Shown here: piece after piece, positions 30,301 through 51,100 of the stretch
Position numbering within the stretch: position 1 is the stretch's first letter
How the letters are laid out: every line of letters begins with the position of its first letter
Virus record (IMG/VR): IMGVR_UViG_3300030330_003013
Coordinates: 2,669-66,668 of that record
From: a virus
Taxonomy: Duplodnaviria > Caudoviricetes
DNA: 64,000 nucleotides
Strand: one strand, 5' to 3'
Position numbers and translations under genes: made by a program
The notes under the pieces: model-generated
Told to the model about the DNA's origin: nothing
What the model saw: only the letters and a program-made list of their open reading frames with translations
Database searches by the model: none

Positions 30301-30578
30301 TCCTCCTCACCTCCCTTGATTATGCGGGAGATATTTGCAATATCCGCCTCATCAATTGACTCGCCACGAATAGCCGCATCTCTCATGTGTAGGATTTCTT
30401 CGGTCAGCCTTACGACTGTCTGTCTGTCTGATACTCCTTCGTTGTAAAGGAGACAGGCGAGGAGAGCGTTTGCATGAACCTCACGCTCGCTCTCATCTCC
30501 GGATAGAAGGGTGGAGATAACATCAACCACCGCTTCTGTCGGGAGAGTTACAAACTCTTGCAAGTCTTCGCCTAACAT
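30297..30578 (-). CDS. Helical hypothetical protein
   Basis: Tiles in the array; ends EEE*. Confidence 0.55.
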   Translation of the reverse strand: MLGEDLQEFVTLPTEAVVDVISTLLSGDESEREVHANALLACLLYNEGVSDRQTVVRLTEEILHMRDAAIRGESIDEADIANISRIIKGGEEE

Positions 30579-31522
30579 TGTTCCATCACCTCCTCGATTG
30601 CAGTTACTACTGCATCAACGGCCTTTTCCACTTGTTGCCGAACATTATTGTTTCGTGGTATGTGATTGACTGCGCTGAAAGCATCACAACCGAGAATAGT
30701 TGCAAGTGTCTCACAAAACGCTTTGTCCGGATTTAGTGTTCTTCCAGCACCGCTGGATGATACATTCGATGCCCTTCTTGCCGCTAAGGAACGGGCGGAG
30801 AAGGTAACATTCCTCCAAACCCATGAGGACATGGCCGAAGCCGCTTGATACAGGTTGAAAACCTCATCCGCCGCTTTGATGCGAGTTACTGCGACTGAGC
30901 CGTTGCCGTTGTATGCAACATCTTCTGAATATGCTAAAGCATATATCTCGACCATGTATCCTTGCTCCTCAAGGATTTCAGCGGCGGCTAAAGCCGCACT
31001 TGCACGAATCGAATTGATTTCGGGGTCAATATTGGCGAGAGAGTTAGTCGGCACGAAGAGGGCTACAACTTCTTGCTTCATGCGAACCCGCCTCTTGCTT
31101 CTGAATGGACTCTCGCCATTGAACAGGCGTTCCATTGAGATTCCATTAACTACTCGTGGAGCATCAGTCCAGCATCGAATGCTTCCCATAATTTCAGAAT
31201 GAAATTGTGAAAGCGCATCGAGCATCTTTCCTTCGTGTTCCTTTACGGCTTTAGCGTCTCTCTCGTGTCCGACTCCATCTCGGCCTTCGTCTTTGACGAC
31301 CTTTGGATTTGCAATTCTTCCATAGAAGTCAAGTTGGGAGCGAGTCATATTTGTAATATCTTCGATATTCTCATGCTTCTCTCCATATTCTATGGAACGA
31401 ATCATGGCTGAATGGCTTGGAGCATAGATGAAATCTATCGGCCGGCTTCGCTGGTGCTTGAACCATCCGGTTCTGACTCCGTTTTCATCGGTTGAATCAT
31501 TGTTCAGCATTTCTCGTCTCAC
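30572..31522 (-). CDS. vWA-like partner of MoxR-type AAA ATPase (CobT-like)
   Basis: C-terminal strand-helix pattern VVALFVPTNSLANI...AALAAAEILEEQGYMVEIYA; directly downstream of the AAA gene. The MIDAS motif looks degenerate. Confidence 0.6.
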   Translation of the reverse strand: MRREMLNNDSTDENGVRTGWFKHQRSRPIDFIYAPSHSAMIRSIEYGEKHENIEDITNMTRSQLDFYGRIANPKVVKDEGRDGVGHERDAKAVKEHEGKMLDALSQFHSEIMGSIRCWTDAPRVVNGISMERLFNGESPFRSKRRVRMKQEVVALFVPTNSLANIDPEINSIRASAALAAAEILEEQGYMVEIYALAYSEDVAYNGNGSVAVTRIKAADEVFNLYQAASAMSSWVWRNVTFSARSLAARRASNVSSSGAGRTLNPDKAFCETLATILGCDAFSAVNHIPRNNNVRQQVEKAVDAVVTAIEEVMEQC

Positions 31523-31560
31523 CTCCTGTAAATTGAGGGGGCGAGTCCGAGTCTTACGAC

Positions 31561-33387
31561 TCAGACCGCGCCTCCAATTGGTGTGGTGATTGGCTCAACA
31601 CCCGCTGGAATCAGCGAAGCCGATTCCTCCCATGAATTGAGACCACCGATACGATTTGCAACAACTTGCCTCTTCGACTCGTCATTGAAAGGAACAATCC
31701 AGCGAGCAACGATTGAAGGCATTGTCCAACCGGAATGAGCAAGGCTCATACCGACTTCTAATGCTCTATAACTCATTGGGATTCCCATTCGGGAAGAGTC
31801 GGCCAAATCTTTCAACTCATTGAACGAGTCGAAGACTTCCTGTGGAGTTGCTGGCTCACCTGCTGGGCTCTCTTCCGCCTCAACCTTTCCAGCATTGGAA
31901 AGACCGCAGATATGAGCCATGATTCGGTTAGAATGACCGAATGCGACAAAGCCTCCAGCGAATCGGTCAAGAAGCGAAGCGTCTTGCTTTTGAGCCGCCG
32001 CAAATCGAGGGGATTTTGCAAATCCCGTAGTGTTTGCCGCCGCCACGATGTAGCAATCCTTGCTAACCGGAATGACCTCGCCTGTAACCGGATTTACAAG
32101 TTGTCTCGATGCTAAAACTCCGTTTAGCAAAGTTGCAACTGCTGGGTCGGCTTTATCCAATTCATCAACAAAGGCTACGCCGCCATTGATTAGAACAGTA
32201 GTCAGACCGCTCATATTCCATTCGTTGTCTGAATTGAGGGAGTATTTGACTCGACCAATCAAGTCGCCTTTCTCCATATCTGCGAAGCAGATAACCTCTT
32301 TGAAGTCATGTTCTTTAGATAGCAAACCCACTTCTTGAAGAAGTGCATGGAACATCTGAGCGGCATGAGACTTGCCTGTTCCAGCATCTCCGGTCATCAA
32401 GACCGGATTAGGGAAGCCACGAGTTGCAAGACCAGCAGTCATAATCCCTAACGCAGTAGGGAAGTGAGGATGATAGACACTTCCGGATTTTGCAACTATT
32501 TGCTGACCCTTGATTACTTCAAGGGTTCTGACCGGAGCGAAGGACTTGCTAAACTGTTCGATTACACCGCTTGCGGTTTCGTGAGCAATCCTTCTTACGG
32601 TCTCCTCGTCAATTGCTTTTCCAGCAATATTCTGAATCAACTCGATAAGTTGGCCTTCTGCACCACCTACGGTGGTAGATTTTACAACCTTCGGTTGGGT
32701 CTTTGGTTCAACAACCTTCGGTTGAGGAGTTGGCTCAACCTTTGGTTGTGCTAAGATAACCGAGTTGGAATTGAAGGATTGCATTTCCCTCCTTGCTTCT
32801 GCTGAATAAAACGCATCAGAAGAGGCTGGCTGACTCCATGAATGGGCTCTATCAGCCAAACTGAGGAAGTCCAGCAACTCAGTTAATCCGAAGTATAGGT
32901 GAAGGTATGAAATGACCTTTCCTGTTTCTTCTGACGGAGTTTTGGAAGCCTTATGGCTTCTATAAGCACCGATGGCGTAGCCATTTCGGATTCCACATTC
33001 AAAGTGAAGCCACTTTGAGTATCGGTTTCCAAAGATAGCACTATCACCGTTGCTTAGGAAGTTTGCAACTTCTCTTCCCTTCATGGCTTCGCCACAACAA
33101 GGGCAATCAGAATCTTGGTGGCCTTTGGCTCGATAGATATTCGCTCCACCCAATCTTTTGATTCGCCGCCTAACTTCGTTAATTTCGCTATCAGTAATCG
33201 CAAACGACTTTGATACGGAGAGAGTTGCAAGTCCTACAATAGAGAGGACTGTGCTTATCTCCGCACTAAAGCCGCTAACCACTACTCCGAAGAGTAGTAA
33301 AGCGGCAACTACTACTCCTACGGCATTCATTATTCCGGCATCTCCTAAATCAGTCAATCTCGACCTCATCACCCTTGTCGGAGGCAC
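31561..33387 (-). CDS. MoxR/CbbQ/CobS-like AAA+ ATPase with N-terminal TM and zinc-finger extension
   Basis: Walker A GDAGTGKS, Walker B FVDELD, AAANT, QDASLLDRF. The N-terminus has two hydrophobic segments and CPCC...WLHFEC. Probable start ATG 33369. Confidence 0.85.
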   Translation of the reverse strand: MPPTRVMRSRLTDLGDAGIMNAVGVVVAALLLFGVVVSGFSAEISTVLSIVGLATLSVSKSFAITDSEINEVRRRIKRLGGANIYRAKGHQDSDCPCCGEAMKGREVANFLSNGDSAIFGNRYSKWLHFECGIRNGYAIGAYRSHKASKTPSEETGKVISYLHLYFGLTELLDFLSLADRAHSWSQPASSDAFYSAEARREMQSFNSNSVILAQPKVEPTPQPKVVEPKTQPKVVKSTTVGGAEGQLIELIQNIAGKAIDEETVRRIAHETASGVIEQFSKSFAPVRTLEVIKGQQIVAKSGSVYHPHFPTALGIMTAGLATRGFPNPVLMTGDAGTGKSHAAQMFHALLQEVGLLSKEHDFKEVICFADMEKGDLIGRVKYSLNSDNEWNMSGLTTVLINGGVAFVDELDKADPAVATLLNGVLASRQLVNPVTGEVIPVSKDCYIVAAANTTGFAKSPRFAAAQKQDASLLDRFAGGFVAFGHSNRIMAHICGLSNAGKVEAEESPAGEPATPQEVFDSFNELKDLADSSRMGIPMSYRALEVGMSLAHSGWTMPSIVARWIVPFNDESKRQVVANRIGGLNSWEESASLIPAGVEPITTPIGGAV

Positions 33388-33954
33388 ACCTACTTAAGAC
33401 TCTTACTTCGCATAATGCACACCGTCTGAGTTTTGACTTGCAAATTGTTATTTCCGAATACCCAAAAATTATCAGCAATTTTCCAAACAATACTCCGTAG
33501 TATTGTTTGGTAAATCACATACGGATACATTGTGGCTGGATTTACAATCCATCCACAACACAGACGGAGGCCTGTGTAATCTCCTATTGAAGATATGAAG
33601 CAAAAATCTTCGATTTATTGCTTATATCCGCGTGGATTTGCGCGCAAGTCCTCCGAAAAATCGGCAGTCATTTGGAGGCGTATATGAGGCACATATCAAG
33701 GACTTCGCAAAGAGACTTCTGATGACTCTCCCTGCGTGAAGTCCGGTGCGCGAGTTGATTGATTTTCTAAGACCGAATCGGCCTAATATCCGGACTACGG
33801 TATCAACTCGTTGATACCTATTGACTATATTAGCCGGACAATTTTGCTTGGTGGTTATTACATAACCAACTGCTGAATCCAAAAAATTGCAGAAGATTCT
33901 TCGCCTTATCTTGACTTAATCTCCGATTACTGTTTGATAAGCAAAAAAAGAGTT

Positions 33955-33991
33955 GGAGGAGGCCAACAGTCGAAGACTGCCGACCCCCTCC
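33955..33991 (-). terminator. Stem-loop followed by a T-tract on the - strand; candidate terminator downstream of 34058..34915
   Basis: GGAGG...CAGTC-GAA-GACTG...CCTCC, preceded on + by AAAAAAA (33943-33949). Confidence 0.5.
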
Positions 33992-34057
33992 GGATTTGCA
34001 ACTTTTCCCTAACTTGATTTTACCTCCTTATTCGATTTCCAATCTTCGATTGAACCC

Positions 34058-34915
34058 TCAATAATTTCCCGAATCGAGGATATATTGGGTCTCTCGATAA
34101 ACTCGGTTAATTCCCTTCCTAACGAAGTTAAAATCCGAATCGGAAGAGTTGGTGAAATCCAGCATAGTCTCAAGACTAACCTTCATTTGGAATCCTATCC
34201 AATCTTTAGCGAGATATTCTTCCTCCATTGAGTCGGCTATCTCCTCTAAGGAGGAGATATTTTCCTTAATGTCTCCTTGATATAGAGCATCAAAGAACCT
34301 TGACCTCAATTCTTTGAATTGAACCTTAGCCTTTACTGACTCCAAATAGGAGTCAATGTCGTCTAAGTCAAGGCTTAGATTCTCTAAGACCTCGATAATC
34401 CACAACCTCTTGATTTCAGAAGTAGGGAGATATATCTCCCTCGACTCCTTGAAATCCCAAATGGCTCTTTGAGACTCGGTTACACCGAGTCTCATGGCTT
34501 TGGTTTGGTTATTGACGAAAACTGATGTTTCAAAACAAAACGAAGTTTTGTTCTCGTCATCAACTTCAATCCAGCAACCGATATATCGGTTGTTTTCGGC
34601 GGCTTCGGTTCTTACTGAATCCAATTTTGATAGGAAAACTTCCCGTAGGGAAGAAGCCCCATCAAAGGGATATTCACCATGTCCGGTGTTCAAGGCTACT
34701 GCGTAGCCTTGAGACCAATTCCGAATCTCCATAGAGATTGGGTCAATGGTCGCCCCACCTTCTGATAGCAAGTGCTGAATCAAAGATTCAGCATCCTCCA
34801 TCAGAAAATCTCCGAAGGTGATGTTCCTTTTAGGAACATCCTCCTCAGACACAGGATGCCTTACGGCATCCTGTGCAGTCGTTCTTTCTGCATCATCATT
34901 CACATTTTGCTTCAT
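34058..34915 (-). CDS. Acidic hypothetical protein (hairpin-saturated gene)
   Basis: 285-aa ORF with an AGGAGG RBS; no recognised family. Confidence 0.65.
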   Translation of the reverse strand: MKQNVNDDAERTTAQDAVRHPVSEEDVPKRNITFGDFLMEDAESLIQHLLSEGGATIDPISMEIRNWSQGYAVALNTGHGEYPFDGASSLREVFLSKLDSVRTEAAENNRYIGCWIEVDDENKTSFCFETSVFVNNQTKAMRLGVTESQRAIWDFKESREIYLPTSEIKRLWIIEVLENLSLDLDDIDSYLESVKAKVQFKELRSRFFDALYQGDIKENISSLEEIADSMEEEYLAKDWIGFQMKVSLETMLDFTNSSDSDFNFVRKGINRVYRETQYILDSGNY

Positions 34916-34986
34916 GCTTTTTCCTCCTGTTTTTATTAACTAAGTCTCCAAAAAAAAAATCAAAATCGCTTGACTGCGGCTTTGTT

Positions 34987-35541
34987 TTACTCATCCAACT
35001 CCAACATTAGCAACCCTAATTCAGCAACCAACTCAACCGCTGAAAATGACGCTGTTTCGCTGATTTCGTGATGTTCCCAGCCATCTAATTCCGACCATTC
35101 CATAAACTCCATTTCGGTCTCAAGAATGAAGGACTGCGACACTATTGCTGATGTTGAATAGACCTCATATTCTCCGCTGATATTCCGGACAGTTGCAAAT
35201 ATCTTCAATTTCTCATCCGGCTCAACATCGGCTGGAATTACTGAGGTCATGGATAGGATTTCCGGCGAATATACTCCTTCGGAGTATAGATTCTCAACGG
35301 TGGGTAATCCAACATCCATTTTTGACGCTGGATAGAAAGTGAAGTGAAGATTGGAAGAAAAATTGCTCTCAATCCACACCTCTTTTTCTGACGGGAAGAC
35401 CCCGTAGGGGTCTTCATTCTCCGCATTCTCGGTTCGGTCTTCACGCTCGTTTCTATGGTAGGACACCATGACCTCGACTAAAGGTCTGAAAAGTAAAGGT
35501 TTCCTTCTTGCAAATAGGCTCGCAGTCCATCGTTTTTGCAA
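34987..35541 (-). CDS. Acidic hypothetical protein
   Basis: 184-aa ORF from TTG; a likely internal ATG (MVSYH) lies near 35469. Confidence 0.55.
   Translation of the reverse strand: MQKRWTASLFARRKPLLFRPLVEVMVSYHRNEREDRTENAENEDPYGVFPSEKEVWIESNFSSNLHFTFYPASKMDVGLPTVENLYSEGVYSPEILSMTSVIPADVEPDEKLKIFATVRNISGEYEVYSTSAIVSQSFILETEMEFMEWSELDGWEHHEISETASFSAVELVAELGLLMLELDE
35514..35535 (-). repeat. Dispersed copy of the 24-bp motif
   Basis: The - strand reads AAACGATGGACTGCGAGCCTAT. Confidence 0.65.
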
Positions 35542-35710
35542 CTTTTAGGGCTTTGAGATTTGCAACTTTTTGAGGCCAAAAATGACGGGGCTGGCGGCCC
35601 ATGCTACACGCCAACCCCCTCTCGTAATTTTTTTATTTTTTTATAGAAAAACCTATATATTTTATAAATCTTAGATAATCTTAATAAAACAGAAGGAATT
35701 AGTCTTATTT

Positions 35711-36034
35711 ATGCCTAAGAACCGACAATTGCAAGATGTAATAATGGGCCACCACATTAGAGACGGAGAAGTCGAAGCAACAGACCTCGCTTCAGCCGTA
35801 ACTGATGTATTAGCAGACTATGCTGTGGAAGTAACTACCGCTGGTGGTAGTGCTACCGAAGCACTAACTGTAGCCGGTGTAACTACTGCATCTAAGATTA
35901 TCGCAACCCTAAAGGATGACGGAAGCAACAATGTAACCATCAAGACCGCAAAGGCCACCGGTGCAAACACCGTAACAGTAGTGTTTTCCGGAGACCCTTC
36001 CAATGATGCAATCGTTGCTATCCTTGCATTCTAA
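35711..36034 (+). CDS. Small A/T/V-rich virion structural-like protein (decoration or fibre)
   Basis: Beta-rich composition; AT-rich TATA-like upstream region (TTTATAAA 35661-35668); converges on terL. Confidence 0.6.
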   Translation: MPKNRQLQDVIMGHHIRDGEVEATDLASAVTDVLADYAVEVTTAGGSATEALTVAGVTTASKIIATLKDDGSNNVTIKTAKATGANTVTVVFSGDPSNDAIVAILAF

Positions 36035-37536
36035 GGTCTGAACGATACAAACTTACCATTAGTGGTCGGATTACGAGGCGTAGCCTTTCCTTTCCAACTA
36101 TTAAGTGATACTCCCGCTGATACCATAGGGGTGTTAGAGGAAGAAGTAATGTTTTGGAATTGGTCTATTGCGTGTGCGAGAGCCATAACTATATCGTTAT
36201 GTCTTCCCTTATCAACAATTACTCCGCTATCCCAAGCGTGAGTTTCTAATTCTTGCAACAATTCATTTACTATTGTTCTCGTTTCATGGTCTCCGTAGGG
36301 GAATACGATTTTACCCTGTTCAAACCATGCTCGCATTCTCATTAGAAGACCTTGCTTTAGAACCCTGTTTGATACGGGGCTGGGTCTGTAGTCAATATTC
36401 GCACCCATGTTTTGCAACAAAGACTGATAGAGTCTTTGGAATCCAGCAGACTCCGCCGCAAAGATAGGGTTTTTGTAAGTAGTGCAAAGTCTAATTATTT
36501 CATGTGCTTGTTTGCTCGGCTCAAAATCATTTCTGCGCCATATATCAACAAGATGCAAGAATCCTTCTTTATCTTGTCTCATAACAACCATAACAGAATA
36601 GTCCTTACCTATACCATGCGAGGGGTCAAACCCAATAACATATCTGCCTTCATGTAACTTTTCTTTCTCTAATACAGATTCCATCCCTAAGTGTTTTCTT
36701 GTAAGGTGTTGGGGAAATACGGCGGAGGCATCATCAACTACACGACATAAATACTCTTGAGAGAATGCTAATTCACCCATAGCCTGTCTTTGCTCAAGCA
36801 AGAAGTTAATCGGTCTAAACTCCGGCCATAACGCTATGGCCTCTATTTCTTCGGGGTTCTTAGCCCATTCATCATAATTTAATACGCTTCCTTTCTTCCA
36901 TGAAGCCCACGCTTCATTTTCAAGCATTTCTGTGTGGTATAAGTCTGTAAGAGAAAGTGGCGTTCCAACAACAAAAATAGATGTTTCGGGGGAAAGCATA
37001 GGTGTTAGTTTTTTTCTAAACCATTGTCTAATATCATCATCGGTTTTATCGCCGCCATCATCTAACACATCGTCAAGAATGATTCTTGCGGGGTGTTCTC
37101 CACGAATAGCAGAACCAACAGACGATGCCTTAATCCATGAACCATTGGTTAGTTGCAACTTCCATTTGTTACTTTTAGACTCATCAATCATTCGGGATAA
37201 CTCCGGATGCCTTTTTAGGTCATCTTTGATTTCTTCAAGACGATTAGCGGCTAAGTCTTTGCTGGCGGAAAATAACCATGTAGTAAAAGGTTTGTTACGC
37301 CATCGTTCAAATAGCAGACTGTGTAAAGCCTTGACTCTTAGCGTGGTGGATTTGGAATGGTCTCGTGGTGCAATCAATAAAACACGATGCACACTTTTAC
37401 CCTGTCTATCATTGAATAGGTCAAACCATTCTCCTATATGGTTGCCCCATGTGTAACCCAACCATTCATAGAAGTGTTTATGGTCGTATCTGCTTCTTTG
37501 CAGATTAAAGTTAGTTAGTAAGTCATTTCCTTTCAT
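36031..37536 (-). CDS. terL: Terminase large subunit
   Basis: LIAPRDHSKST (Walker A), IRGEHP, IILDD (Walker B), VGTP, IGFDPSHG and DIVMALA nuclease motifs. Confidence 0.95.
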   Translation of the reverse strand: MKGNDLLTNFNLQRSRYDHKHFYEWLGYTWGNHIGEWFDLFNDRQGKSVHRVLLIAPRDHSKSTTLRVKALHSLLFERWRNKPFTTWLFSASKDLAANRLEEIKDDLKRHPELSRMIDESKSNKWKLQLTNGSWIKASSVGSAIRGEHPARIILDDVLDDGGDKTDDDIRQWFRKKLTPMLSPETSIFVVGTPLSLTDLYHTEMLENEAWASWKKGSVLNYDEWAKNPEEIEAIALWPEFRPINFLLEQRQAMGELAFSQEYLCRVVDDASAVFPQHLTRKHLGMESVLEKEKLHEGRYVIGFDPSHGIGKDYSVMVVMRQDKEGFLHLVDIWRRNDFEPSKQAHEIIRLCTTYKNPIFAAESAGFQRLYQSLLQNMGANIDYRPSPVSNRVLKQGLLMRMRAWFEQGKIVFPYGDHETRTIVNELLQELETHAWDSGVIVDKGRHNDIVMALAHAIDQFQNITSSSNTPMVSAGVSLNSWKGKATPRNPTTNGKFVSFRP

Positions 37537-48171: not shown

Positions 48172-51100
48172 ATGCCGATAAGTGATAGCCGAAACCTATT
48201 CACGGACACCGAATCAAATAGAATCGGTGTAACTCCGGATGGGGCGCAACTTTTCCGAGACACTTCAAGTGGTATGGTTTTCGTTGGTGATGGAACAAAT
48301 CTTGGAGGACACGCAATAGATGTAAGACCTCCAAAAGACATTACCGGAACAACACATACCCTCGTTAGAGAAGACGAAGGAAAAACATTAGTTGTAAATA
48401 ATGCAAGCGGTTGCACTATTACTGTTCCCCCCGAATCATCAGTTGATTGGCCTACAGGATATACAGAAATTAAACTATTCAATAAGGGTGCTGGAGATAT
48501 TACTATTGCCGCTGGAAGTGGAGTAACAGTAAGTGGTGAAACTACAATTGTTCAAAATGAACACGGTATTATCAAAAGTATATCTGCTGATTCTTGGATT
48601 TCTGTTCTGTCGAGAAACGCAACAGGTCCGATAGGACCGACCGGCCCAGCCGGTCCGACAGGACCAACAGGGGCTACAGGTCCTACCGGTCCGACAGGGG
48701 CTACAGGTCCTACCGGTCCTACCGGACCGCAAGGAGATGAGGGAGATGCTGGGCCAACCGGACCTACAGGTCCAACCGGACCTACAGGTTCAACCGGACC
48801 TACAGGAAGCACAGGGGCAACAGGACCACCCGGAAGCACAGGGCCTACAGGCGCAAGGGGTAACAGAATCGGTCCGGAATATGTGTTTAGCACTACAACT
48901 ACTGATGCTGACCCAACTGATGCTAAAGTTAGATTTAATAATTCCACTTTTTCCTCAATAAGTAAAATCTATATTGATGATGAATCAAGAGGAGGAATAG
49001 ACCAACAAGCGTGGTATAGAACATGGGATGATTCAACCTCAACAAACAAAGGAACACTTGTTTTTGATTCAGCAGATTCGGATACTGACGCACCAATAAT
49101 TTTTACAGTAACAGGAGTAACAGAAGCAACAGGATACTTCAAAATAGATGTAACCCCGCTTTCCGGTTCTATCCCTTCTAATGATGCGGCCATAGTAGCA
49201 GAATATACTCCAAGTGGTAATGTTGGAACAACAGGACCTACAGGACCTACAGGACCGGCTGGACCTACAGGGCCTACAGGACCTACGGGTTCAACAGGGC
49301 CGACCGGACCACAAGGAACGGCTGCCGGATTTGGAACGCCTACTGCTTCAACCGGACCGGTTGGTGTTACAGCAAGCGGGCCGGATACGGCAAAGGTGTT
49401 TGCCTTTTCTATCCCTCAAGGTGCTACGGGGGATACAGGCCCAACAGGCCCAACAGGCCCAACAGGACCTCAAGGAACGGCGGCGGGTTTCGGAACACCT
49501 ACCGCAACTACAGGTCCGGTGGGAGTTACCGCAAGTGGTCCGGATACTGCTAAGGTATTTGCATTTAGCATACCTCAAGGTGCTACAGGCTCAACCGGAC
49601 CGACAGGACCGACAGGACCGACCGGTCCGGATGGTCCTACAGGTCCTACAGGACCTACAGGCTCAACAGGAACGGCGGCTGGCTTTGGAACACCTACCGT
49701 TTCTTCCGGCCCTCTTGCTATCACTTCAAGCGGGCCGGATACCGCCAAAATATTCGCTTTTACAATTCCTTCGGGCGATACAGGACCAACCGGCCCTGCC
49801 GGTCCTACCGGCCCTACCGGTCCAACAGGTCCTACGGGTTCAACAGGACCTACAGGACCGGATGGTCCGGATGGTCCAACAGGCCCTACGGGTGCAGCAG
49901 CAGGGTTTGGAACACCTACGGCTACCACCGGTCCTATCGGCGTTACTTCATCCGGTCCGGATACATCTAAAGTTTTTGCCTTTTCCATACCTGCTGGTGC
50001 AACAGGGCCAACAGGTCCAACAGGGCCAACAGGTCCAACAGGTCCAACCGGTGCAGATTCAACGGTTGCTGGGCCTCCCGGTCCTACAGGACCTACAGGA
50101 CCGGCTGGACCTACGGGTTCAACGGGGGCAACAGGTCCTACCGGACCTACAGGACCGGCTGGAAGCACAGGACCGGAAGGTTTAGTGTGGGAAGGAAATT
50201 GGGCTACTTCGACTTCGTATCAAGTGGATGATGCGGTGTATTATACGGTTGAAGAATCATCATATATTTGTATTCAAGCACATACCTCTTCCGGTTCTAT
50301 ACTACCTACTAACACTTCTTATTGGAGTCTTTTGGCGGCTCAAGGAGATACCGGACCTACAGGTCCTACCGGACCTGCTGGACCTACAGGTCCTACCGGA
50401 CCAACAGGCCCTACCGGTCCTACGGGTGCTGATTCAACAGTAGCCGGACCAACAGGCCCGACAGGACCTACAGGCCCGACAGGACCAAGCGGTCCTACAG
50501 GACCGGCTGGAAGTGATGGAGGAACAGGACCGACAGGACCAGCCGCAGGGTTTGGAACGCCTACAGCAACTACAGGCCCTATTGGTGTAACCTCAAGTGG
50601 GCCGGATACGGCTAAAGTCTTTGCTTTTTCAATACCTGCTGGCGCAACCGGTCCAACAGGACCTACAGGGCCTACAGGCCCTACAGGTCCGGCAGGTGAG
50701 GATGGTTCAGATGGTGCTACAGGACCAACCGGACCGACCGGACCAACAGGCTCAACGGGAAGTGCCGCTGGATTCGGCACTCCAACCGCCAGCACCGGAC
50801 CAATCGGTGTTACCGCAAGTGGTCCGGATACAGCAAAAGTCTTTGCCTTTTCTATTCCAGCAGGTGCTACCGGACCAGCAGGGCCAACCGGACCTGCTGG
50901 ACCTACCGGACCTACCGGACCTGCTGGACCTACCGGACCAGCAGGTGATGACGGTTCAGATGGAGCAACCGGACCGACCGGACCTACAGGTCCAACCGGA
51001 CCTACCGGACCTGCGGGTTCAACAGGACCGACAGGACCGACCGGAACAGCGGCAGGTTTCGGCACACCTACTGCTACTACCGGTTCAATAGGTGTAACGG

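Follow-up and report, generated by a model that had tools for sequence, protein, structure and literature searches.

The window analysed here comprises 64,000 nucleotides (positions 2,669 to 66,668) of the IMG/VR virus record IMGVR_UViG_3300030330_003013 and covers the greater part of a contig of 66,668 bp whose ends overlap and which derives from marine metagenomes. Next to its gene for the terminase large subunit (terL), early genes and spacers are packed with short perfect inverted repeats, a hairpin array that is real and larger than first described. Judged by its genes, which include those for PolB, an RFC-like clamp loader, a PD-(D/E)XK nuclease, TerL, and tail tube and tape measure proteins, this is a tailed virus with archaeal-type replication genes, and its host is probably a marine archaeon. 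The locus contains the following features (ORF, open reading frame):

30330–35620, no strand: the whole hairpin array, about 5.3 kb, with 40 perfect stems (arms of at least 6 bp, loops of 3–4 nt); the sole such zone in the genome.
33281–35415, no strand: the dense core of long perfect stems (arms of 7–12 bp), comprising the repeats listed in a preliminary description and those at 33281-33298, 33483-33510, 33799-33818 and 33852-33868.
35609–35621, minus strand: the family-wide junction motif GAGGGGGTTGGCG, consensus GAGGTGGTTGGCG, a candidate terminase cut site or terminal-repeat start; the hairpin density starts right behind it.
35627–35652, no strand: an A/T tract that precedes the junction motif in every relative where the motif was found.
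34987–35541, minus strand: the first early ORF, acidic (35 D/E vs 14 K/R), with two long stems inside.
34058–34915, minus strand: ORF285, an acidic early ORF of 285 amino acids with evenly spaced stems.
33388–34057, no strand: a non-coding spacer with hairpins, including a terminator-like stem and T tract at 33955-33991 (minus strand).
31561–33387, minus strand: a MoxR-like AAA ATPase gene (AAA_5), clade-conserved; hairpin-enriched here, not in a hairpin-less subclade of relatives.
30572–31522, minus strand: a vWA-like partner gene (DUF7192), the final hairpin-enriched gene in the genome.
35711–36034, plus strand: a late gene of 107 amino acids on the junction's hairpin-free side.
36031–37536, minus strand: terL, outside the array, the landmark for aligning relatives.

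All inverted repeats listed in the preliminary description were found again, with coordinates exact or within 1 bp; the one at 34471-34493 is corrected to 34470-34494, with arms of 11 bp. Its count of nine repeats with arms of at least 8 bp in ORF285 holds, but two of these (34424-34441 and 34575-34592) are perfect 18-bp palindromes without a loop, which fold physically as a 7-bp stem with a TATA loop, so that seven of nine keep such arms when only stems with loops of 3 nt or more are counted. Chance is excluded: the nine repeats in ORF285 compare with a mean of 0.40 and a maximum of 3 in 300 synonymous-codon shuffles and with 0.09 in dinucleotide shuffles, and the 13 such repeats in the segment 33390-35420 compare with 0.25 in shuffles. 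The DNA folding of 34400-34900 gives z = -12.8. The limits 33390-35420 had been drawn too narrowly, as the AAA and vWA genes are enriched too: the plateau extends over about 5.3 kb, from 35,620 to about 30,330, with 9, 9, 7, 6, 6 and 3 stems of at least 6 bp per successive kb from 35,620 downwards, then about 0-1. Stems with DNA-type loops are nearly missing from the rest of the genome. An assembly artefact, which had been named as a possible undoing of the observation, was looked into and is contradicted by identical stems both in assemblies made independently and in the unitigs of further runs.

Between 30,300 and 35,620, 19 of 26 triloops read GNA on either strand (arms of at least 6 bp; 17% expected, p = 3e-10), compared with just 3 of 20 in the remaining 58.7 kb. 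The loop repertoire first proposed (GAA, GTA, GCA, AAA and GTAA) is correct in the main, most triloops being GNA, but does not describe the TAAG, TATA and AAATA loops.

Is it the DNA or the transcript that folds? The pooled hairpins number 779, with 404 triloops and 323 tetraloops among them. More than half of the pooled triloops are GNA (221 of 404; sense strand 93, antisense strand 128), 71% of the GNA loops have a C-G closing pair, and in non-coding DNA the GNA loops divide 42 vs 56 between the strands (p = 0.19). The tetraloops are led by TTTA/TAAA (80) and CTTG/CAAG (42), with GNRA (11) and UNCG (14) rare. GNA, TTTA and CTTG are known stable DNA mini-loops. The first mismatch past the stem is G-T in 170 and A-C in 168 cases, hence there is no G-U bias; sense and antisense strands fold equally, hairpins are as dense in non-coding DNA as in genes, filling non-coding leaders as well (L091), and an Rfam search gave no match. 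Action of the structure at the DNA level is thus supported.

The stems are also maintained. In comparisons among relatives, which as comparisons among kin are not independent, substitutions amount to 2.5% in stems vs 6.6% outside, and there are 143 compensated pairs, 53 fully compensated hairpin comparisons and 5 loop inversions; examples are found at 34850-34875, where L098 has four compensated pairs, and at 35270-35288 and 35395-35415. The compensatory changes that the preliminary description had suggested looking for therefore exist and, together with the unrelated stems of relatives, bear out its view that structure and not sequence is under selection. From the loop inversions it follows that the repeats pair in DNA, at least during replication or repair. 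Median hairpin spacing is 34-58 bp, abutting hairpins are depleted, and stems are evenly spaced in ORF285 (p = 0.0015), in L146 (p = 0.004) and in gene 106 of the cultured halovirus HRTV-7 (p = 0.004).

Across the relatives, the array is fixed in place but not in sequence. It lies directly downstream of terL in 21 of 60 dereplicated relatives anchored on terL, reaching 17-21 stems per kb in some, over unrelated genes or non-coding DNA and with unrelated stem sequences. The pooled hairpin density is 0-0.3 per kb before the junction, 9-10 over the next 2.5 kb and about 2 by 6-7 kb, an abrupt start followed by a fade over 5-8 kb, and each complete hairpin genome has a single such zone. An A/T tract followed by GAGGTGGTTGGCG occurs at the same place family-wide, down to about 57% TerL identity, and here (35609-35652) the pair is a candidate packaging or cut site of the whole family. 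The middle domain of ORF285 holds 7 stems here vs 0-1 in 7 outgroup homologs, and the AAA/vWA genes have 1-12 stems per kb in hairpin viruses vs 0-2 in the hairpin-less subclade; since homologous domains and genes are hairpin-poor in viruses without the array, protein sequence does not explain the hairpins. Several hairpin viruses also feature, in non-coding DNA upstream of the AAA gene, long alternating purine-pyrimidine tracts rich in CA/TG/CG (L116:14700-16100, L130:14300-14600, and about 2.9-4.3 kb from the junction in G010/G012), possibly Z-DNA-forming, supercoil-responsive DNA. One record among the relatives, FUFK010041292.1 (87 kb; L149/L150), carries terL twice and is probably an over-assembled circle.

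In a quick, midpoint-rooted TerL tree, all 21 hairpin viruses fall within one clade of 28, which also contains a nested group of six without hairpins. What do these viruses have at the same place? From the same junction, they show a gradient of ACTGCG in both orientations (9.1 vs 1.2 per kb), with 13-23 copies in the first 2 kb of five genomes, preferentially with an AA-CG element ten bases, i.e. one helical turn, upstream; the full bipartite form is less common. The combination resembles a site at which a protein binds duplex DNA. In the 10 genomes compared, hairpins and ACTGCG exclude one another, and the hairpin-less subclade also lacks the acidic first ORFs. ACTGCG was seen in the first 2-5 kb past terL in L117, L122, L133, L145, L148 and L150 and in genomes G006-G009 and G011. 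Outgroup viruses in turn have TTACA-type arrays at this place; L157, L159, L162, L021 and G014 are dense in GTTACA/TTACAA/ATTACA 1-5 kb past terL, with up to about 60 matches per kb (L162). As hairpin-less and outgroup viruses carry motif arrays there, this end always seems to hold a dense signal array, of which hairpins are one dialect.

The position of this end in a virion genome can be read from cultured haloviruses. The 340-bp terminal repeat of HRTV-7 is confirmed in its record (PMC3950731). Hairpins reach 10-11 stems per kb at 0.7-1.45 kb from the early end of this virus, inside its first gene, where 17 stems compare with 1.4 in synonymous shuffles; in the 62 kb examined elsewhere in this virus there is about 1 stem per kb. 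Its loops (C-GAA-G, C-GGA-G, GTAA, CTTG) are those of the marine array. HSTV-2 and HCTV-6, close kin of HRTV-7, show the same signature, and in all three viruses the 10-13 stems per kb are confined to the vicinity of the early end, 0.7-1.5 kb from the terminus and not within the terminal repeat of 340 bp:

HRTV-7, KC292021, 67,600-68,400 (L177:10600-11400); HSTV-2, L180:8570-9350; HCTV-6, L184, last 2 kb; strand not given: hairpin-rich first early gene with C-GNA-G hairpins about every 34 bp.

This C-GNA-G saturation of the first early gene in cultured Mincapvirus haloviruses is apparently unreported. A weaker enrichment, lacking GNA loops, is seen in the first 3 kb of HF2, HRTV-5 and Hardygib1; in HF2 this stretch (0-3 kb) is the immediate-early region (PMC7230728). 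The signature is absent in T5, N4, T7 (left end), HVTV-1 (both ends) and HCTV-1 (first 4 kb).

When it is opened at the junction, the genome of the marine virus matches the HF2/HRTV-7 layout of terminally repeated archaeal tailed viruses: a non-coding end, acidic first genes, small early genes, a replication block, converging late genes, and terL near the other end. Because the cultured haloviruses show the signature at a mapped early end and the layout matches, the junction is probably the early terminus and thus a physical end of the marine genome. The preliminary suggestion of a leading region of an archaeal virus is in this respect most likely correct, given the signature at the mapped Mincapvirus early terminus; its further proposals, ejection of this end first and a cruciform or single-stranded state, can only be inferred. 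By analogy with T5, T7 and N4, the early end would enter first. Unitig depth was considered as evidence for a terminal repeat and not used, as contig depth cannot rank places; it was higher at 34951-36642 in one run (115.7 vs 75-85) and at 33757-36056 in another (10.6 vs 4.5-7.3), flat in a third and noisy in a fourth. The phage collection searched for nanopore virion genomes held none of the marine virus's family.

As to the proteins under the array, no protein family matches the first early ORF (34987-35541), for which relatives suggest a later methionine start and a 162-residue product. Residues ~45-165 of ORF285 (34403-34780) form a 120-residue alpha/beta domain flanked by short acidic modules. 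This uncharacterised domain is widespread in actinophages and other tailed viruses and matches only uncharacterised phage proteins; its model is confident (pLDDT 89), with a top PDB Z of 4.3 and no clear solved fold. A likeness to SAM lyases (Z of 3.9 and 3.2) was too weak to be used.

Magrovirales, viruses of Poseidoniales, are marked by PolB, a clamp loader, a head-tail module and genomes of 90-110 kb; the marine virus encodes PolB, an RFC-like ATPase, TerL and a tape measure, and its 66.7-kb genome lies below that range (PMC12999244). Its relatives measure 61-72 kb, and host scans against GTDB gave no match. GATC, CTAG and TGCGCA have zero copies in the whole genome (G000). TTGCAA is over-represented, at about 5-15 copies per 2 kb in the early arm, a lineage-specific excess shared by L085 and absent in L033, L086, L116 and L130. 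At 48500-51100, weak 6-bp inverted repeats reflect Gly-Pro-Thr collagen codons (GGTCC/GGACC) and are no part of the hairpin array.

How might such an array work? The explanation we lean towards, if tentatively, is that the repeats are extruded by supercoiling into mini-cruciforms on the entering genome end, which would serve as a docking track for a DNA-binding factor. The first 5 kb are densely set with perfect inverted repeats that are short and whose loops are the most stable mini-loops of DNA; the entering end would stay topologically held by the virion, and negative supercoiling from host gyrase or from transcription of the first genes would convert the repeats to small cruciforms. On this shape-coded track, a DNA-binding factor of the host or the virus could then dock and secure, draw in or open the incoming end. 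A C-G closing pair and GNA loop bases are what N4 hairpins require for extrusion, at a superhelical density of -0.035 (PMC4496689). The strand symmetry would be explained as well, because a cruciform needs a good loop on one strand only. Extrusion in vivo and the docking role are our suppositions about what was observed directly: the array, its DNA-type loops and strand symmetry, compensatory upkeep, fixed position, the signature at mapped halovirus early termini, and replacement by a motif gradient.

Several points weigh against docking at an entering end. Contig ends show no pile-up at the junction, and a free linear end should not keep supercoils unless constrained. Loop inversions and multi-pair changes reveal template switching, which is itself able to perfect stems. 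Helical (10.5-bp) phasing of hairpin centres is absent, and even spacing is significant in just 3 of 17 tests. Kin share traits, so the 21 viruses represent few independent events. Among 10 near-complete genomes, no gene is common to all hairpin viruses yet missing from the hairpin-less ones. The closest correlate, the ORF285 grouping (4 of 5 hairpin vs 0 of 5 hairpin-less genomes), rests on weak links, and as no gene tracks the hairpins perfectly, no viral partner protein was found.

The most serious rival, which we judge unlikely, is a passive shield. Host helicase-nucleases would unwind or resect the exposed end, whereupon both freed strands would snap into nuclease-resistant mini-hairpins, stalling degradation or leaving fragments that are poor CRISPR spacers or Argonaute guides. 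d(GNA) mini-hairpins resist exonucleases, and such a shield would account just as well for the strand symmetry, the DNA-type loops and the decay away from the end; the median spacing corresponds roughly to one hairpin per spacer length, and the complete lack of GATC and CTAG makes host defence pressure evident. However, the plain duplex motif of the sister subclade points to protein recognition instead of passive folding.

Less probable is a mutational scar without benefit, in which the end would become single-stranded again and again, either by strand displacement that starts from a nick in the terminal repeat or by duplication of the repeat, and template switching would turn quasi-palindromes into perfect ones with stable loops. 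Loop inversions bear the signature of template switching, as do 3-5 pairs compensated simultaneously, and many amino-acid changes are tolerated in ORF285 (non-synonymous codons 12, synonymous 10). HF2 has an annotated nick site at its repeat border (PMC7230728). A scar fits poorly with the depletion of abutting hairpins, with even spacing in some genes, and with the HRTV-7 array, which is confined to one end and does not overlap the terminal repeat. Above all, the nested subclade with the same layout lost all hairpins and gained a similarly shaped motif gradient, and it is mainly for this replacement that we prefer a selected recognition role over a scar.

We give little credence to a replication signal, in which the array would resemble the single-strand origin of a plasmid and form a lagging-strand or priming zone, exposed when rolling-circle replication begins at the end of the genome. 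The single-strand origins that are known span a few hundred bases and consist of long imperfect stems. The sharp start at a conserved junction would suit such a signal, as would the concatemers and nick site reported for HF2 (PMC7230728), but one strand only would be displaced, yet stable loops occur on both.

Highly structured pre-early mRNA, serving stability, translation pacing or escape from RNA-targeting defence, had been offered in the preliminary description and is disfavoured as highly improbable. The hairpins do sit in early genes and would fold in RNA, but triloops dominate and RNA tetraloops are rare, the sense strand has no G-U bias, both strands fold equally, non-coding DNA is equally dense, and Rfam has no match. 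Even more improbable are single-stranded promoters of N4 or Frpo type, another of the initial ideas: loop and closing pair fit the N4 extrusion rule, but no bases are conserved outside the stems, dozens of sites lie within ORFs in both orientations, neither a multi-subunit RNA polymerase gene nor a large ORF with a polymerase match was found, and N4 itself has 1 such hairpin per several kb. Chance or assembly artefact is ruled out by shuffles, independent assemblies, relatives and cultured viruses.

Beyond docking by extruded cruciforms, it is possible, if more speculative, that the first genes of archaeal tailed viruses are overwritten with an entry code of kilobase scale, an array of docking sites spelled as DNA shape (extrudable mini-cruciforms) or as sequence motif, and that the factor reading it drives or protects genome entry. 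If so, this would be a new class of cis-acting genome element, spanning marine and hypersaline lineages, with switchable structure and sequence dialects. Hardly anything is understood about DNA entry and free-end protection in archaeal tailed viruses. The array is a marker of the early terminus that is visible in the sequences of uncultured marine viruses, DNA structure overrides codon choice across several genes, and the loss of hairpins with gain of a motif is a natural experiment.

The components of the array are known from N4 promoters, target hairpins of diversity-generating retroelements (DGRs), plasmid leading regions and Streptomyces telomeres, but a kilobase-scale, gene-overprinting, strand-symmetric, motif-exchangeable early-end array of archaeal tailed viruses is in no paper searched. 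The initial impression that nothing of the kind is described thus agrees with the literature searched, which reached few subscription papers; the halovirus and Poseidoniales-virus papers among it never mention hairpins, and a tree-of-life survey of inverted repeats omits phage termini.

Streptomyces telomeres resemble the array in their hairpins packed at a linear DNA end. They consist of GCA-loop palindromes with sheared G-A loops, docking sites bound by Tap/Tpg, but are shorter than 200 nt, conserved in sequence, and formed by a single 3' overhang in terminal-protein replication, whereas the marine array is kilobases long, sequence-free and overprints genes. The DGR target likewise has a hairpin/cruciform with 7-10 bp stems in which structure counts over stem sequence and extrusion needs negative supercoiling (PMC3240598). 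It differs in occurring once per target, with a GRNA tetraloop on a fixed strand, and in needing a reverse transcriptase cassette; no reverse transcriptase gene was noticed among the ORFs examined, with no search aimed at one. The first-step-transfer DNA of T5, with its injection-stop signal, is similarly repeat-rich, first-entering and equipped with pre-early genes, and T5 is further marked by a long terminal repeat and two-step entry. Its stems, however, do not exceed 4 per kb, C-GNA-G hairpins are absent, and the marine early ORFs have no match to the T5 A1/A2 families.

Plasmid leading-region single-stranded promoters (Frpo, ssi) share with the array structure-coded DNA signals in first-transferred DNA beside early genes. 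Their stems are few, long and imperfect and serve to rebuild -35/-10 boxes on the one strand that is transferred, whereas the marine stems are short, perfect, intragenic and on both strands. Sigma-70-like sites number 3 vs 8 expected, in a scan that does not cover archaeal promoters. The N4 virion-RNA-polymerase promoters come closer, with short stems and C-GNA-G loops at the first-injected end, which extrude by supercoiling while the genome is constrained in injection (PMC4496689). N4 has three such hairpins, which lie between genes on a strand that is fixed, have conserved recognition bases and are served by a virion polymerase; those of the marine array number in the tens, occur inside genes in either orientation and lack conserved flanks, and no polymerase was found. 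The largest ORFs gave no polymerase match, and a scan for PF00940 (single-subunit RNA polymerase) gave none either, but neither did its control.

The nearest counterpart is found in the Mincapvirus haloviruses (HRTV-7, HSTV-2, HCTV-6; Hafunaviridae), which have the same stems, loops, density and terminal position in a first acidic early gene. Their array is about 1 kb long vs 2-8 kb, and its GAA loops lean to the sense strand. HRTV-7 gene 106 has no detectable homolog in the marine virus and PolB identity is about 24%, so the likeness is convergent or very old. As these cultured viruses hold the array in one 0.76-kb gene, its function is directly testable.

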